This document shows, one piece after another, positions 11,549 through 39,010 of a stretch of 64,000 nucleotides of DNA (positions within the stretch are counted from its first letter, which is position 1; each line of letters starts with the position of its first letter). The DNA is from Escherichia coli (lineage in GTDB: Bacteria > Pseudomonadota > Gammaproteobacteria > Enterobacterales > Enterobacteriaceae), in assembly GCF_003334335.1 (NCBI RefSeq), contig NZ_QOWQ01000014.1. The stretch is one strand, 5' to 3'. The position numbers and the translations under genes are program-made. The notes beneath the pieces are model-generated. The model saw only the letters and a program-made list of their open reading frames with translations, searched no databases and was not told the DNA's origin.

Positions 11549-11860
11549 AATATGCCGCCCAAAGGGCGGCATTCGGGCTTACTTGCTGCTCTGAAGGTTG
11601 TTAACCACCAGTAAATTGTCGCCGGAGAGACTCCGGTTATTATTTACCTCGGTTAACAGCGCACCAGAAACAATAAGTACGATACAAAAGCACCGTATCT
11701 TCATTGTGCGGTCCATGCGAAGACCGCATCACGACAGCACCACTGGCGATATTGCCGCGATAGCAAGCGCTGTGAAACACCTGCATTTACGGCCACGGAA
11801 CATCCTTTCCTAAAGCCAGCGCCCGTTTGCGAGACGGCGGAAAGGGCCGCAGTGGATAAT
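11549..11860 (-). ncRNA. ryfA: RyfA-like ~300-nt transcript (small-protein mRNA / sRNA) in the sseB-sseA intergenic region; ends at the hairpin 11554..11570
   Basis: Minus-strand unit inferred from an intrinsic terminator oriented for the minus strand (stem gccgccc/gggcggc at 11554..11570, U-tract given by the complement of 11545..11553), a minus-strand TATTAT -10-like hexamer at 11866..11871 (no convincing -35 found) and the enclosed small ORF. Position matches my recollection of where ryfA lies relative to sseB. Exact ends are uncertain. Confidence 0.45.
11579..11716 (-). CDS. Candidate small membrane protein, 45 codons (41 from the second ATG at 11704): MDRTMKIRCFCIVLIVSGALLTEVNNNRSLSGDNLLVVNNLQSSK; TimP-like type I toxin candidate
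   Basis: Hand translation of the minus strand. Hydrophobic N-terminal segment IRCFCIVLIVSGALL followed by a polar Asn-rich tail. Stop codon lies 8 nt upstream of the terminator hairpin. No strong Shine-Dalgarno sequence seen. Below the ORF track's length cutoff. Confidence 0.4.
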   Translation of the reverse strand: MDRTMKIRCFCIVLIVSGALLTEVNNNRSLSGDNLLVVNNLQSSK

Positions 11861-12027
11861 ACACTAACAGAACAATAATAACTCTCTTTTGCTTGACAAA
11901 AAGAGAGTTACTGGCGAGTATTGTCTCCGCTGAGACGCGCTTGCATTACTACGGTAATACAACCTGCTGGAAAGGCCGCGAACCGGACCAGCAACAAAAA
12001 ACCGCCTGATTTTGGCGGTTTTTTGTT
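11834..12027 (+). ncRNA. sRNA-like module copy 1 (~194 bp): internal inverted repeat around TTGACA, conserved 22-nt box, intrinsic terminator
   Basis: Inverted repeat actctctttt/aaaagagagt flanks gcTTGACA (11893..11898). Conserved box cctgctggaaaggccgcgaacc at 11963..11984. Hairpin aaaaaaccgcc-tgatttt-ggcggtttttt near 11995..12027 with T-tracts on both strands, so strand assignment is tentative. Longest internal ORF is 12 codons. Confidence 0.4.
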
Positions 12028-12155
12028 TTTTAAAGGAAAGTGAATTTACATGTTTAAGTAATATCTTTTACCGGTTAGAATTTTTAATTTTGAGCAGGAT
12101 TTGTTTATATTTGTCTGAATTCGGACTAATAAGCCAGGTTATTTTATTACCGAAC

Positions 12156-12349
12156 ACGGCGGAAAGGGCCGGTGTCGATAATACGCTAAATAAACAATAA
12201 TTACTCTCTTTTGCTTGACAAAAAGAGAGTTACTGGTGAGTATTGTTTTGCTGTGAAGCACCTGCGTTGCTCATGTAACACAAGTCAACCTGCTGGAAAG
12301 GCCGCGAACCAGACTAGCAATAAAAAACCGCCAAATTCGGCGGTTTTTT
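12156..12349 (+). ncRNA. sRNA-like module copy 2 (~194 bp), diverged paralogue of copy 1
   Basis: Same architecture 322 bp downstream: identical start acggcggaaagggcc, same inverted repeat and TTGACA, identical 22-nt box at 12289..12310, terminator aaaaaaccgcc-aaattc-ggcggtttttt at 12322..12349. Central part diverged (roughly 75-80% identity by eye). Longest ORF 14 codons. The terminator also closes sseA on the minus strand. Confidence 0.35.
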
Positions 12350-33169: not shown

Positions 33170-34747
33170 ATGACGGAAAACATTCATAAGCATCGCATCC
33201 TCATTCTGGACTTCGGTTCTCAGTACACTCAACTGGTTGCGCGCCGCGTGCGTGAGCTGGGTGTTTACTGCGAACTGTGGGCGTGGGATGTGACAGAAGC
33301 ACAAATTCGTGACTTCAATCCAAGCGGCATTATTCTTTCCGGCGGCCCGGAAAGTACTACTGAAGAAAACAGTCCGCGTGCGCCGCAGTATGTCTTTGAA
33401 GCAGGCGTACCGGTATTCGGCGTTTGCTATGGCATGCAGACCATGGCAATGCAGTTGGGCGGTCACGTTGAAGCCTCTAACGAACGTGAATTTGGCTACG
33501 CGCAGGTTGAAGTCGTAAACGACAGCGCACTGGTTCGCGGTATCGAAGATGCGCTGACCGCAGACGGTAAACCGCTGCTCGATGTCTGGATGAGCCACGG
33601 CGATAAAGTTACCGCTATTCCGTCCGACTTCATCACCGTAGCCAGCACCGAAAGCTGCCCGTTTGCCATTATGGCTAACGAAGAAAAACGCTTCTATGGC
33701 GTACAGTTCCACCCGGAAGTGACTCACACCCGCCAGGGTATGCGCATGCTGGAGCGTTTTGTGCGTGATATCTGCCAGTGTGAAGCCCTGTGGACGCCAG
33801 CGAAAATTATCGACGATGCTGTAGCTCGCATCCGCGAGCAGGTAGGCGACGATAAAGTCATCCTCGGCCTCTCTGGTGGTGTGGATTCCTCCGTAACCGC
33901 AATGCTGCTGCACCGCGCTATCGGTAAAAACCTGACTTGCGTATTCGTCGACAACGGCCTGCTGCGCCTCAACGAAGCAGAGCAGGTTCTGGATATGTTT
34001 GGCGATCACTTTGGTCTTAACATTGTTCACGTACCGGCAGAAGATCGCTTCCTGTCAGCGCTGGCTGGCGAAAACGATCCGGAAGCAAAACGTAAAATCA
34101 TCGGTCGCGTTTTCGTTGAAGTATTCGATGAAGAAGCGCTGAAACTGGAAGACGTGAAGTGGCTGGCGCAGGGCACCATCTACCCTGACGTTATCGAATC
34201 TGCGGCGTCTGCAACCGGTAAAGCACACGTCATCAAATCTCACCACAACGTGGGCGGCCTGCCGAAAGAGATGAAGATGGGCCTGGTTGAACCGCTGAAA
34301 GAGCTGTTCAAAGACGAAGTGCGTAAGATTGGTCTGGAGCTGGGCCTGCCGTACGACATGCTGTACCGTCACCCGTTCCCGGGACCAGGCCTTGGCGTTC
34401 GTGTTCTGGGTGAAGTGAAGAAAGAGTACTGTGACCTGCTGCGCCGTGCTGACGCCATCTTCATTGAAGAACTGCGTAAAGCGGACCTGTACGACAAAGT
34501 CAGCCAGGCGTTCACTGTGTTCCTGCCGGTACGTTCCGTTGGCGTAATGGGCGATGGTCGTAAGTATGACTGGGTTGTCTCTCTGCGTGCTGTCGAAACC
34601 ATCGACTTTATGACCGCACACTGGGCGCATCTGCCGTACGATTTCCTCGGTCGCGTTTCCAACCGCATTATCAATGAAGTGAACGGTATTTCCCGCGTGG
34701 TGTATGACATCAGCGGCAAGCCGCCAGCTACCATTGAGTGGGAATGA
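33170..34747 (+). CDS. guaA: GMP synthase (glutamine-hydrolysing)
   Basis: ORF 525 aa, [40 protein letters not shown]...; PP-loop SGGVDSS. Confidence 0.97.
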
Positions 34748-34772
34748 TTTGACCCTGCACTATGAATGAACA

Positions 34773-34802
34773 AAACCCTCTGTTACTACAGAGGGTTTTT
34801 TA
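34773..34802. terminator. Bidirectional intrinsic terminator between convergent guaA and yfgI
   Basis: aaaaccctctg-ttactaca-gagggtttttt, with A-run and T-run flanking the stem. Confidence 0.6.
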
Positions 34803-34839
34803 TCTTCAAGAATTATAGGATTGAAGTTACTAACATCGA

Positions 34840-35379
34840 TTAATTAAACCAGCTGTCCGATTTGTTCTCTTCTGCTTTGCCCACGCTTTTCATCAGATCG
34901 CGACCGCCTTCAGTCATATTTCTGTTGGCGTCAGCTTCAGATTGCACCACATCGGTTTGCGCAGCTTTGTGCTTCAGTTCCTGATCGATAAATTCGTTTT
35001 CTCGCTTAACGCGGGCTTCTTCTTTCGCCAGCGCCAGTTTTTGTTTCTGAATCTCTAAGCTGCGTAGCTCATCTTCATAACTTTGATCGCGTTTTTTGTC
35101 CGCAGAGGCTTCGGCGTCCAGTTTATCCTGACGAGCTTTCTTATTTGCCGCTGCCGTTGCCGCTCTTTTGTTAGCGGCGGCCTGGGCATTTGCGCGACGT
35201 TGCTTCTCTTGCTGGATTTCCCTGTTGCGCTCCGCGACCCATTCGTCATGCTGCCTTTGCTCTTCATTTTTACCTTGCTGTTCCGCTTCTGCGACAGCAG
35301 AGAGTTGATCCTGCAATGATGAGGCGATAGCCGGATAGCTTAAGGAGGCTAAGATGGCGCAAAGAAAAACTTTCTTCAT
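34840..35379 (-). CDS. yfgI: YfgI, secreted highly charged (K/E/Q/A-rich) protein, 179 aa
   Basis: ORF with signal peptide MKKVFLCAILASLSYPAIASS followed by low-complexity charged repeats. Confidence 0.88.
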   Translation of the reverse strand: MKKVFLCAILASLSYPAIASSLQDQLSAVAEAEQQGKNEEQRQHDEWVAERNREIQQEKQRRANAQAAANKRAATAAANKKARQDKLDAEASADKKRDQSYEDELRSLEIQKQKLALAKEEARVKRENEFIDQELKHKAAQTDVVQSEADANRNMTEGGRDLMKSVGKAEENKSDSWFN

Positions 35380-35394
35380 GACTCCTCCTGATTA

Positions 35395-35913
35395 TTAGCT
35401 CTTTTCAGGACATTTGGTATTTGGCTGAATACGCGTTTCGTTATACGTCGTGGTAATAACAACGGCTAAACCTGTCGTAAACTGGCACTCTTTACCCACC
35501 TGGGTAGAGGTATACACTTTGGTGCCTTCCTTATAGGTTAAAGAAACACCTTCCACTAAGGTTTTATCATTCACCATAGAACCCGCTGCCGCGCCTACAG
35601 CTCCGCCGCCAACTGCACCTGCCGTCGTTCCGGAATTGCTGCCAGACCCGACGTTGTGGCCGATAACACCGCCAGCGACTGCGCCAATAAGCGCGCCGAA
35701 GGCTTGTGCGTTCCGTTTATTTTGGGAGTTGTCTACGGCAACTTTTGCGGGAAGAATGGAAATAATATTAACGGTTTTAGTTTCTTGTTTGGTATTCAGT
35801 TGATCGGTTTGATAAACATCGGCAGCATGATCGTCAGCATTTGACTGGCATCCTGCCAGAGTGAATGACGCTAACATTGCCACAGGCAGAAGACATTTTT
35901 TAAATTTCATCAC
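35395..35913 (-). CDS. yfgH: YfgH, glycine-zipper outer-membrane lipoprotein, 172 aa
   Basis: Lipobox LAGC; Gly-zipper GALIGAVAGGVIGHNVGSGSNSGTTAGAVGGGAVGAAAGS. Confidence 0.88.
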   Translation of the reverse strand: MMKFKKCLLPVAMLASFTLAGCQSNADDHAADVYQTDQLNTKQETKTVNIISILPAKVAVDNSQNKRNAQAFGALIGAVAGGVIGHNVGSGSNSGTTAGAVGGGAVGAAAGSMVNDKTLVEGVSLTYKEGTKVYTSTQVGKECQFTTGLAVVITTTYNETRIQPNTKCPEKS

Positions 35914-36223
35914 TATTCCTTGTTATACACATTACGAAAAATAAGACATTTAAGATCATCAAAAGAGGAAAGTAAATGTATTGCGTATAAAGGGATAGAT
36001 TAAATTTATTAAAATTCACGCAGGGAATAATTTATAAAAATATATCATTACAACATATATATTAATTTTATATTTATTTCGCAGCCAAACAGGATAAACA
36101 TCAGTCAGGATAAAGACGTAAAATTTAAGATGAAAGAATATCTGCCGCTTTGATAATCCCAAACAGCAAAAGCATCCGACAGCGAAGTGCCGTTATGTTC
36201 TGTGAAAGTGGAGAAGGTAACCG

Positions 36224-36415
36224 CTAACGTTGTACCGGTGATTCGACGGAGAGTGTGGATTGCTGAGCTTCTTTTTTGCTCTGATGGTGCTGCCAGGCAC
36301 CGACGGACGAGTAGATAAAACGGCCAAAGAAGAAGATAAAGCTGATGAGCAGTACGATACGGGTCATGCGACTGTTAAATCGGTGTCGTTTTCGCATACT
36401 GGTTGCCTGACTCAC
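36224..36415 (-). CDS. yfgG: YfgG, small membrane protein, 63 aa
   Basis: ORF MSQATSMRKRHRFNSRMTRIVLLISFIFFFGRFIYSSVGAWQHHQSKKEAQQSTLSVESPVQR; one predicted transmembrane helix. Confidence 0.8.
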   Translation of the reverse strand: MSQATSMRKRHRFNSRMTRIVLLISFIFFFGRFIYSSVGAWQHHQSKKEAQQSTLSVESPVQR

Positions 36416-36625
36416 AAAAGGTTCCTTGAAGTATGTCCCACGCTGTGGACGGTACTTACATTAAGGCACAACAGGACAAAATGGTCAATTCTTCGTTATG
36501 TAAAAAAGCGTCAGTGGATACATATTTTAATGTTATGGAAGTTAATTTAATTATTTACAATGATGATGTAATAATGATGAATTAACATGATAAACGTAAT
36601 AATTCATTAATCAGGGTTATTTTGT

Positions 36626-36639
36626 TTGATATATATCAA
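36626..36639. promoter_or_regulatory. FNR box TTGATatatATCAA upstream of pdeF
   Basis: Perfect match to the FNR consensus TTGAT-N4-ATCAA, centred about 134 bp upstream of the pdeF ATG in an AT-rich divergent promoter region. Confidence 0.55.
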
Positions 36640-36766
36640 TTGGTACTTTCATATGACACTTAGAATCAATGCTCTCTATAGTGATGAATAATCATCATTC
36701 GAAGTCAGGTGGGATGCCTGTCTGAATACACCTCCTTCAGGATGTGGGGGATTCTGCTGAGCATCT

Positions 36767-39010
36767 ATGAAACTGAATGCAACTTATATAAAAATACGTG
36801 ATAAATGGTGGGGGCTTCCGCTGTTCCTGCCTTCTTTAATCTTGCCCATTTTCGCCCACATTAATACTTTCGCGCATATTTCTTCCGGTGAGGTTTTTCT
36901 CTTTTATCTGCCTCTGGCACTGATGATCAGCATGATGATGTTTTTCAGCTGGGCGGCATTGCCAGGGATCGCCTTAGGGATTTTTGTCCGCAAATATGCA
37001 GAGCTGGGTTTTTACGAAACGCTATCATTAACGGCTAATTTTATTATCATTATCATTCTCTGTTGGGGCGGTTACAGGGTCTTTACTCCCCGGCGTAACA
37101 ACGTTTCACATGGTGATACCCGTTTAATTTCCCAGCGTATATTCTGGCAGATTGTGTTTCCTGCAACGCTGTTTCTGATACTTTTCCAGTTTGCTGCATT
37201 TGTAGGATTACTGGCGAGCAGAGAAAATCTGGTCGGTGTCATGCCTTTTAACCTCGGGACTTTAATCAATTATCAGGCCTTACTGGTGGGTAATCTGATC
37301 GGTGTCCCGCTGTGCTACTTCATCATTCGGGTAGTGCGAAATCCATTTTATTTACGTAGCTATTATTCGCAATTAAAACAGCAGGTTGATGCCAAAGTCA
37401 CCAAAAAAGAGTTCGCGCTCTGGCTACTGGCATTAGGTGCTTTATTGTTGCTGTTATGCATGCCGTTAAATGAAAAAAGCACAATTTTTAGCACCAATTA
37501 TACCTTGTCATTATTGCTGCCCCTGATGATGTGGGGAGCGATGCGCTATGGTTATAAGCTGATTTCGCTGCTCTGGGCGGTCGTGTTGATGATCAGCATC
37601 CACAGCTATCAAAATTACATTCCCATTTATCCTGGCTATACCACGCAGCTGACCATAACCTCCTCCAGTTATCTGGTATTCTCTTTTATTGTCAATTATA
37701 TGGCTGTACTGGCAACCCGTCAGAGAGCGGTAGTCAGACGCATTCAGCGGCTTGCGTATGTGGACCCGGTGGTTCATCTGCCAAATGTTCGCGCCCTGAA
37801 TCGCGCGTTGCGTGATGCCCCCTGGTCTGCGCTTTGTTATTTACGCATCCCTGGCATGGAAATGCTGGTTAAGAACTATGGCATCATGCTGCGGATTCAA
37901 TACAAGCAAAAACTTTCTCACTGGCTGTCACCCTTGCTGGAACCGGGTGAAGATGTTTATCAGCTTTCGGGTAACGATCTCGCGCTGCGACTGAATACAG
38001 AATCGCACCAGGAGCGCATTACCGCACTGGATAGCCATCTCAAGCAATTTCGTTTCTTTTGGGATGGCATGCCGATGCAACCGCAGATTGGCGTCAGTTA
38101 CTGCTATGTGCGCTCGCCAGTGAATCATATCTACCTGCTGCTGGGAGAGCTAAATACGGTCGCCGAACTTTCCATCGTGACCAACGCCCCGGAAAATATG
38201 CAGCGTCGCGGGGCAATGTATTTGCAACGCGAATTGAAAGATAAAGTCGCGATGATGAATCGACTACAGCAGGCGCTGGAACACAACCATTTTTTCCTGA
38301 TGGCCCAGCCGATTACCGGTATGCGTGGTGATGTTTACCATGAAATTCTTCTGCGCATGAAAGGTGAGAATGATGAACTGATCAGCCCCGATAGCTTCTT
38401 GCCGGTCGCGCACGAATTTGGTTTATCGTCGAGTATCGACATGTGGGTCATTGAGCATACGCTGCAATTTATGGCTGAAAACAGAGCGAAGATGCCCGCT
38501 CACCGTTTTGCTATTAATCTGTCTCCAACCTCGGTATGTCAGGCTCGTTTTCCTGTTGAAGTCAGTCAGTTGCTGGCTAAATATCAGATTGAAGCGTGGC
38601 AACTTATTTTTGAAGTCACCGAAAGTAATGCTCTGACCAATGTTAAGCAGGCGCAAATCACCTTGCAGCATCTTCAGGAATTAGGCTGCCAGATTGCGAT
38701 TGATGATTTCGGCACCGGCTACGCCAGCTATGCGCGGCTTAAAAATGTGAATGCCGATCTGCTTAAAATTGACGGCAGTTTTATCCGCAATATTGTGTCA
38801 AATAGTCTGGATTATCAGATAGTGGCATCGATTTGCCACCTGGCGCGAATGAAGAAAATGCTGGTAGTGGCAGAGTACGTTGAAAACGAAGAGATCCGCG
38901 AGGCGGTGCTCTCTTTGGGGATCGATTATATGCAGGGTTATCTTATTGGTAAGCCGCAGCCGTTAATTGATACGCTGAATGAAATCGAACCCATTCGCGA
39001 AAGTGCCTGA
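36767..39010 (+). CDS. pdeF: c-di-GMP phosphodiesterase PdeF (YfgF): MASE1 membrane domain, GGDEF-like and EAL domains
   Basis: ORF 747 aa, MKLNATYIKIRDKWWGLPLFLPSLILPIF...; EIL (EAL-type) region YHEILLRMKGE. Confidence 0.92.
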   Translation: MKLNATYIKIRDKWWGLPLFLPSLILPIFAHINTFAHISSGEVFLFYLPLALMISMMMFFSWAALPGIALGIFVRKYAELGFYETLSLTANFIIIIILCWGGYRVFTPRRNNVSHGDTRLISQRIFWQIVFPATLFLILFQFAAFVGLLASRENLVGVMPFNLGTLINYQALLVGNLIGVPLCYFIIRVVRNPFYLRSYYSQLKQQVDAKVTKKEFALWLLALGALLLLLCMPLNEKSTIFSTNYTLSLLLPLMMWGAMRYGYKLISLLWAVVLMISIHSYQNYIPIYPGYTTQLTITSSSYLVFSFIVNYMAVLATRQRAVVRRIQRLAYVDPVVHLPNVRALNRALRDAPWSALCYLRIPGMEMLVKNYGIMLRIQYKQKLSHWLSPLLEPGEDVYQLSGNDLALRLNTESHQERITALDSHLKQFRFFWDGMPMQPQIGVSYCYVRSPVNHIYLLLGELNTVAELSIVTNAPENMQRRGAMYLQRELKDKVAMMNRLQQALEHNHFFLMAQPITGMRGDVYHEILLRMKGENDELISPDSFLPVAHEFGLSSSIDMWVIEHTLQFMAENRAKMPAHRFAINLSPTSVCQARFPVEVSQLLAKYQIEAWQLIFEVTESNALTNVKQAQITLQHLQELGCQIAIDDFGTGYASYARLKNVNADLLKIDGSFIRNIVSNSLDYQIVASICHLARMKKMLVVAEYVENEEIREAVLSLGIDYMQGYLIGKPQPLIDTLNEIEPIRESA

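Follow-up and report, generated by a model that had tools for sequence, protein, structure and literature searches.

We analyzed a 64-kb window of the Escherichia coli chromosome (64,000 nucleotides of contig NZ_QOWQ01000014.1; all positions refer to this window) and focused on yfgI, yfgH, and yfgG, three small genes between guaA and pdeF. A preliminary description of the sequence had taken them as a single AT-rich islet, acquired horizontally long ago and probably silenced by H-NS. We consider it likely that two independent units lie here beside an integration hot spot: yfgG, which belongs to the conserved backbone, and yfgHI, a mobile two-gene cassette whose products YfgH and YfgI are partners. 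All three genes are already named and catalogued in E. coli K-12, and their families were already known. Phenotypes of YfgH and YfgG had also been published, and so the finding as first written adds little.

The window carries csiE, the isc operon, guaBA, yfgIHG, pdeF, ppx, ppk, and the hyf operon in that order, collinear with annotated strains. Between the end of guaA at 34747 and the start of pdeF at 36767 lie the three open reading frames (ORFs), all on the minus strand; their positions and shared orientation were exactly as first described. The argument turns on the following features (GC, guanine-plus-cytosine content).

34840 to 35379, minus strand: yfgI, encoding a DUF5384 protein of 179 aa
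35395 to 35913, minus strand: yfgH, encoding a predicted SlyB/TraT-type glycine-zipper outer-membrane lipoprotein
36224 to 36415, minus strand: yfgG, encoding a DUF2633 protein of 63 aa
35914 to 36223, no strand: AT-rich yfgHI leader (GC, 0.306)
36416 to 36766, no strand: divergent regulatory spacer of yfgG and pdeF, of conserved length (GC, 0.342)
34733 to 34747, plus strand: approximate integration core at the guaA 3' end (partial matches break at query positions 336 to 350)

A backbone gene and a probable cassette beside guaA

To place the three genes in their genomic setting, we used the guaA neighborhoods of 80 species, each searched with the window proteins. A yfgG gene divergent from pdeF, with ppx and ppk following, recurred in about 20 other species (genera Enterobacter, Citrobacter, Kluyvera, Leclercia, Pluralibacter, Siccibacter, Cedecea, and others), and Pantoea had a weaker yfgG-ppx pairing. 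The spacer between yfgG and pdeF measured 312 to 366 bp in 17 other species, and in all 17 its GC was 3 to 18 points under the local value. Because both its length and its low GC are conserved, this spacer is a regulatory region and not the edge of an island. GC at third codon positions (GC3) is normal in yfgG (0.562; z = -0.1). Given the synteny with pdeF-ppx-ppk, the spacer of conserved length, and the normal GC3, yfgG is an ordinary member of the Enterobacteriaceae backbone and does not belong to an islet.

The distribution of yfgHI is patchy where that of yfgG is broadly syntenic, and the trio is thus not one unit. E. albertii was the sole species of the sample with both yfgH and yfgI beside guaA. 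The pair was missing from the guaA-yfgG slot of most sampled Enterobacteriaceae, and no sampled species outside this family had a copy within 10 kb around guaA. Targeted look-ups found yfgHI in the same position and orientation in Citrobacter portucalensis and Salmonella bongori, and a decayed pair in one S. enterica genome (yfgH not called, yfgI shortened). A published study reports the yfgH orthologue of Typhi as an annotated pseudogene and no orthologues in Typhimurium. The slot itself is variable. The distance from guaA to yfgG ranged from 134 bp (Cedecea) and 285 bp (Siccibacter) up to 9.4 kb, and the ORFs in it, judged by eye from their N-terminal sequences, looked like unrelated cargo (transporters, LysR-type regulators, a channel, oxidoreductases, and a bacteriocin exporter). 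A patchy distribution at a variable locus, as expected of an islet, was found for yfgHI alone and not for yfgG. In Citrobacter, an MscS-like channel gene sits in the slot beside yfgHI in C. portucalensis (L178, 4309 to 5187) and alone in C. youngae (L018, 11707 to 12585), an example of stepwise gain and loss. The distribution is most simply explained by a single old insertion in the common ancestor of Escherichia, Salmonella, and Citrobacter and by later losses.

Within E. coli the yfgIHG region is core. The interval 34748 to 36766 (2019 bp) was found in 5426 of 5426 complete genomes; a single place covered at least 80% of it in 5402 of these and was chromosomal every time. The K-12 derivative C600 was identical to the window over a 792-bp query spanning the guaA/yfgI junction (34398 to 35189). 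Because the pair is fixed in the species, its acquisition must be old and its genes now count as core.

The guaA 3' end beside yfgHI is an integration hot spot. The guaA/yfgI junction was intact in 4563 of the complete genomes and split in 863 (16%). A type III restriction-modification island lies at this end in strain NCTC11023, and in the record of phage TL-2011b the lysis genes run straight into yfgI, yfgH, and yfgG. A scan of IMG/VR with the DUF5384 alignment listed 80 matches, which were E. coli yfgI copies, most of them in prophage calls ending just past yfgH; there were no distant relatives among the matches listed. No flanking repeats or integrase belonging to yfgHI itself were found. 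The association of yfgHI with mobile elements and an integration site comes instead from the split guaA end and from the pairs on plasmids and phages described below.

Mobile relatives of the pair

By tblastn, YfgI-like genes were present in 200 plasmid and 13 phage records and YfgH-like genes in 201 plasmid records and, among phages, in those same 13; the breakdown by organism and mobility was nearly the same for the two. The two genes were adjacent in 13 of 13 contexts examined, with gaps of 1 to 15 bp (15 bp in the window), and the DUF5384 gene lay directly downstream of the gene for the YfgH-type lipoprotein each time, a feature of the family that we propose here. DUF5384 is small, with 258 matches in 5.8 billion proteins and 252 in a set of 1.84 billion cluster representatives at 50% identity. 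Separate PHROG families exist for YfgH and YfgI.

In phage P7, upf50.5 and upf50.0 are a yfgHI pair. This pair, also present in SJ46, RCS47, JL22, and IncY P1-like plasmids, keeps the two-gene order of E. coli with a gap of 3 to 11 bp. Identity of the P7-type copies to E. coli is 63 to 67% for YfgH and 48 to 49% for YfgI, and the GenBank notes for the P7 pair already record the likeness. The P7 pair differs from the chromosomal one in being carried by a phage-plasmid, where it has the immI region on one side and the late tail operon on the other. Mobilizable ColRNAI (ColE1-type) plasmids of 7.5 kb carry the pair beside a gene for a phosphoethanolamine transferase. This transferase is an uncharacterized protein of 513 aa (L085, 2403 to 3944; L087, 3965 to 5506). 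We rejected its identification as MCR (mobile colistin resistance), as it falls far under every MCR cutoff; the closest types are CptA and EptB.

Distant members from metagenomes (YfgI identity, 33 to 42%) had a gene for a glycine-zipper lipoprotein of 168 to 173 aa located 1 to 11 bp upstream. These pairs sit among insertion sequence (IS) elements, HigBA or HicAB toxin-antitoxin pairs, and an EcoRII system. None of the mobile copies or metagenomic contexts looked up had a yfgG-like gene beside the pair. We conclude that yfgHI is a separate, lineage-restricted mobile cassette that is now fixed in E. coli. One metagenomic lineage has a 223-aa gene without a family match 12 bp upstream of the lipoprotein gene, forming a three-gene operon flanked by transposases (L175, 1902 to 2573; L176, 2133 to 2804; L177, 1104 to 1775).

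Among the papers naming these genes in the library searched, we saw no description of the co-inheritance of yfgH and yfgI, including their carriage by P7-type and Col elements, and a 2025 preprint on YfgH never mentions yfgI. The invariant pairing and the carriage by P7-type phage-plasmids and Col plasmids are thus modestly new. The mobile copies are also poorly labeled. YfgH-type lipoproteins are called "DNA methyltransferase" in RefSeq phage records (P7, SJ46, RCS47, and TL-2011b) and in PHROG 1277 (L089, 4476 to 4997, which is P7 upf50.5; L088, 7916 to 8431), and in phage phi456 the two genes are annotated as "minor tail protein" and "tail tip protein." We flag these annotation errors on YfgH-type lipoproteins here, as they are propagating through databases.

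Composition and regulatory regions

The preliminary description had pointed to two very AT-rich spacers, and these proved to have the lowest GC in the 64 kb: 0.306 at 35914 to 36223 and 0.342 at 36416 to 36766, against a mean of 0.468 (standard deviation [sd], 0.068) for the 25 remaining spacers of the window. Each of the ten 300-bp windows with the lowest GC starts within 35751 to 36551. The interval as a whole has a GC of 0.427, about 3.5 sd below same-sized windows (mean, 0.523; sd, 0.028). The spacers do not surround the trio as had been stated, however, but flank yfgG, and the core genes on either side are not both richer in GC, since pdeF on the right (0.466) is not above the trio. The AT-richness is carried by the spacers, and the coding sequences of the three genes are only mildly low (0.47 to 0.50). 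GC3 is low in yfgH (0.428; z of about -2.9) and yfgI (0.494; z of about -1.5), unlike in yfgG, and the codon-choice scores of all three genes are inside the range of the window. For yfgHI, this composition would agree with an old, largely ameliorated acquisition. The AT-rich spacers themselves are probably promoter regions and not island scars. Second to them in AT-richness within the window is a stretch at about 11850 to 12300 (GC of about 0.36), in the 661-bp spacer after timP, a gene for a small toxic membrane protein.

The smaller features of the interval are as follows.

35948 to 35976, minus strand: promoter-like element TTTACT-17 nt-TTAAAT upstream of yfgH, recognized by its conservation
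36460 to 36488, minus strand: yfgG sigma-70 promoter TTGACC-17-CTTAAT, placed in the window from published hexamers (Shimada 2014)
36653 to 36682, plus strand: pdeF promoter ATGACA-18-TATAGT, a scan match with hexamers identical to those of Shimada 2014
36433 to 36585, plus strand: 50-aa ORF, "hypothetical protein" WP_000017552.1 of the Prokaryotic Genome Annotation Pipeline (GC, 0.314), overlapping the yfgG promoter
36177 to 36192, minus strand: weak terminator-like hairpin after yfgG, inside the 35914 to 36223 spacer
34772 to 34799, no strand: hairpin terminator between the convergent guaA and yfgI, with a 12-bp stem and A/T runs on either side

Regions upstream of yfgH homologues had a GC 4 to 22 points under the local value in 11 of 11 contexts. 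The TTTACT-17-TTAAAT element was kept in E. coli, E. albertii, C. portucalensis, and S. bongori, and the block TTTACTTT was also present upstream of the yfgH copies of Col plasmids and P7. Because of this uniformly low GC and the shared block, the AT-rich leader appears to be part of the cassette. Reading the region upstream of yfgH by eye, we saw no convincing conserved match to Rcs, PhoP, CpxR, or sigma-E boxes.

On the yfgG side, sigma-70 promoters for yfgG and pdeF have been published for their shared spacer (Shimada 2014), and a sigma-S chromatin immunoprecipitation peak and a yfgG start site have been reported there as well. Only fragments of the 50-aa ORF aligned in other genera, and it is probably a spurious gene call. 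An Rfam scan of 34000 to 37500 gave 0 matches at E <= 1, that is, no known RNA in the spacers, and NCBIfam has no model for YfgI, YfgG, or the 50-aa ORF. In strain W444, an IS5 element replaces the stretch from the yfgI N terminus to the pdeF N terminus (L002, 5093 to 7529). In a gallium-evolved K-12 population, an IS5 insertion in the yfgG/pdeF spacer was reported at a frequency of 0.5. The AT-rich spacers may be IS5 targets.

YfgG, first described as a single-helix membrane protein of 63 residues, is a DUF2633 protein with one hydrophobic stretch. It matches PF11119 over its full length (E = 4e-28) and does not differ from the family, of which it is the reference member. A published nickel/cobalt tolerance phenotype of YfgG is conserved in Klebsiella michiganensis, and in Dub-seq (sequencing of dual-barcoded shotgun expression libraries) the nickel benefit maps to yfgG and not to yfgH. 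The preliminary description had called the function of the genes unknown, which is outdated both for YfgG and for YfgH, whose role in envelope integrity is published.

Envelope functions and competing explanations

YfgH is a glycine-zipper lipoprotein, as first noted. Its lipobox LAGC is followed by QS, with no Asp at position +2, and the lipobox Cys is invariant in 11 homologues, as are the C-terminal Cys143 and Cys168 among homologues; the glycine-zipper 2TM domain matches PF05433 (E = 7e-8). The annotated GTG start (35913) is 2 nt past the AAGGAA ribosome-binding site, and the equivalent codon in C. portucalensis is GTA. The conserved ATG at 35910 is probably the real start, which would give a protein of 171 aa. 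The closest known system is SlyB of E. coli and Salmonella (PDB 7OJF and 7OJG), with YfgH residues 8 to 164 aligning to SlyB residues 5 to 154 (E = 3.9e-10). The two proteins share the lipobox, the glycine-zipper hairpin, and the periplasmic domain, and both protect the outer membrane under stress of the sodium dodecyl sulfate (SDS)/ethylenediaminetetraacetic acid (EDTA) type. For its part, YfgH is also carried by mobile elements, and in every context examined a DUF5384 gene follows its gene. The likeness to TraT, the surface-exclusion and complement-resistance lipoprotein of F-like plasmids that forms a 10-chain outer-membrane assembly (PDB 9E2V and 9FS5), is weak and partial (9E2V, E = 0.0019; Pfam TraT, E = 2.5e-6, residues 62 to 158). 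The entries 7OJF (SlyB) and 9E2V (TraT) each contain the chain in many copies. By homology, YfgH is predicted to be a ring lipoprotein of the SlyB/TraT type.

Published work supports a role of YfgH at the envelope. Its outer-membrane localization has been published, and the proposed ring oligomer rests on AlphaFold 3 models and fractionation in a preprint. Deletion of yfgH makes cells sensitive to SDS/EDTA and leaky, with clsA suppressors reported. The gene is induced upon knockdown of LpxC, LptD, or BamA and has an aggravating genetic interaction with lptD.

YfgI matches the DUF5384 model PF17358 over its entire length (E = 9e-62; positions 1 to 145 of 145). As first described, it has a signal peptide, which ends at AIA19, and a charged, low-complexity mature part, in which 116 of 160 residues are K/R/D/E/Q/N/A. 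A hydrophobic N terminus was present in 54 of 54 aligned DUF5384 members. Structure prediction with AlphaFold2 gave a single secreted helix, continuous over residues 16 to 176 (predicted local distance difference test, 90.9), that would measure about 24 nm if fully extended, by arithmetic from the model. Conservation is confined to the last approximately 85 residues. The N-terminal half is variable and charged and gave no clear heptad signal; its periodicity supports calling neither a coiled coil nor a single stable helix. A YfgI profile had no meaningful match among PDB sequences, and Foldseek found 0 matches to the model in the PDB, as expected for a single helix. Two DUF5384 proteins (P0197 and P0223; loci L184, L185, and L092) end in a hydrophobic helix and basic tail, which is likely an inner-membrane anchor, and one member of 409 aa (P0237) is fused to a long repetitive N-terminal extension.

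YfgI is probably the partner of YfgH. Nalidixic acid is a hydrophobic quinolone. The yfgI deletion mutant is selectively sensitive to it (7% survival), a phenotype published under the label "DNA damage," and a barrier defect accounts for the sensitivity no less well than that label does.

These data can be joined in the following scenario. yfgG would be ancestral to the Enterobacteriaceae and encode a small inner-membrane protein, with an AT-rich regulatory spacer from which it and pdeF are divergently transcribed. The yfgHI operon, with its own AT-rich leader, would have entered the variable slot downstream of guaA in the Escherichia-Salmonella-Citrobacter ancestor, to be lost or to decay later in many lineages and become fixed in E. 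coli, while its relatives would travel on P1/P7-type phage-plasmids and small ColE1-type plasmids and among chromosomal sites flanked by IS elements, toxin-antitoxin pairs, or restriction-modification genes. YfgH would be lipidated and sorted to the outer membrane, where its hairpin and periplasmic domain may form SlyB/TraT-like rings that stabilize lipid and protein domains when outer-membrane biogenesis is under stress; the ring step is published for SlyB and is a preprint proposal for YfgH. YfgI would be exported by Sec and serve, as a long helical rod, as the dedicated periplasmic partner of the YfgH ring, and the nalidixic acid sensitivity of its mutant would then reflect a defect of the outer-membrane barrier and not of DNA repair. 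More tentatively, we propose that YfgI is an obligate partner of the ring and that the pair is a mobile outer-membrane-stabilizing module with which P7-type phage-plasmids and Col plasmids toughen or remodel the host envelope. We regard this stronger form as a serious possibility, somewhat short of even.

Several observations weigh against this scenario. The YfgH mechanism rests on a preprint. We infer the partnership of YfgI with YfgH, and an AlphaFold construct with the two joined by a linker (11 paired rows) was uninformative (predicted template modeling score, 0.33). The C-terminal anchors of some DUF5384 members complicate a simple docking model. Pairwise identities of YfgH and YfgI correlate at r = 0.95, but common ancestry confounds this value. 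The two genes are only mildly atypical in codon usage, and the count of gains and losses is rough, as the 80-species sample is a capped subsample without Salmonella or Klebsiella pneumoniae.

Three other explanations were weighed. That all three genes form one acquired envelope module silenced by H-NS now seems very improbable. The genes are co-oriented in the most AT-rich 2 kb of the window, IS5 inserts into these spacers, and genomic SELEX (systematic evolution of ligands by exponential enrichment) has placed an in vitro H-NS site in the yfgG/pdeF spacer; counts of the 10-bp high-affinity H-NS motif gave too few sites to say anything. The idea is nevertheless largely refuted for yfgG, which is syntenic with pdeF in many genera without yfgHI, has normal GC3, its own promoter, and a 310-bp spacer before yfgH, has a nickel/cobalt phenotype separable from yfgH, and does not adjoin the pair in the mobile and metagenomic contexts looked up. 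An old acquisition is supported for yfgHI, by its low GC3, patchiness, plasmid and phage homologues, and adjoining integration site, and is not supported for yfgG. Because yfgH and yfgI deletions have phenotypes in ordinary media and YfgI has been detected by proteomics, the pair is not fully silent; full H-NS silencing is unlikely, and partial repression is possible.

A purely vertical history, in which all three genes are ancestral, the spacers are mere promoter regions, yfgHI was often lost, and plasmid and phage copies were captured from chromosomes, is not so remote and yet improbable. It would account for the shared position and orientation in three genera, for the core status and only mildly atypical codon usage of the pair, and for the Col-plasmid copy being closest to the chromosomal clade (YfgH identity, 73 to 81%). 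It sits poorly with the empty slot in most sampled Enterobacteriaceae and the lack of a copy within 10 kb of guaA in sampled species outside the family, with the rarity of the family (about 250 of 1.8 billion cluster representatives at 50% identity), with the deep-branching members adjoining IS elements, toxin-antitoxin pairs, and restriction-modification genes, and with the demonstrable plasticity of the slot and adjoining guaA end. The remaining explanation overlaps with the one that we prefer: yfgHI would be primarily a phage or plasmid "moron" pair, a TraT-like device for surface or superinfection exclusion or serum resistance, with the chromosomal copy as a domesticated remnant. The YfgH-TraT homology is weak yet detectable, but it is far weaker than that to SlyB. 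About 190 P1-like phage-plasmids along with mobilizable Col plasmids carry the pair, the P7 copy adjoins the immI immunity region, and both proteins have PHROG families; PADLOC, on the other hand, matched no defense system for YfgI, YfgH, or YfgG, and the published phenotypes concern envelope integrity and not exclusion, with no exclusion or serum phenotype known for YfgH. We consider this account unlikely, if somewhat less so than the vertical one.

With a backbone yfgG and a mobile yfgHI cassette as the likely arrangement, the unit boundaries are redrawn: the apparent three-gene islet becomes a backbone gene and a two-gene cassette. If YfgI is the partner of the YfgH ring, experiments with YfgH alone may miss half of the system. 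The current model, with YfgH as a single protein, would in that case be incomplete, and the label "nalidixic acid resistance/DNA damage" of YfgI would be wrong. Mobile elements would, if the proposal holds, be disseminating a device that hardens the envelope, next to an enzyme that modifies lipopolysaccharide in the case of some plasmids.

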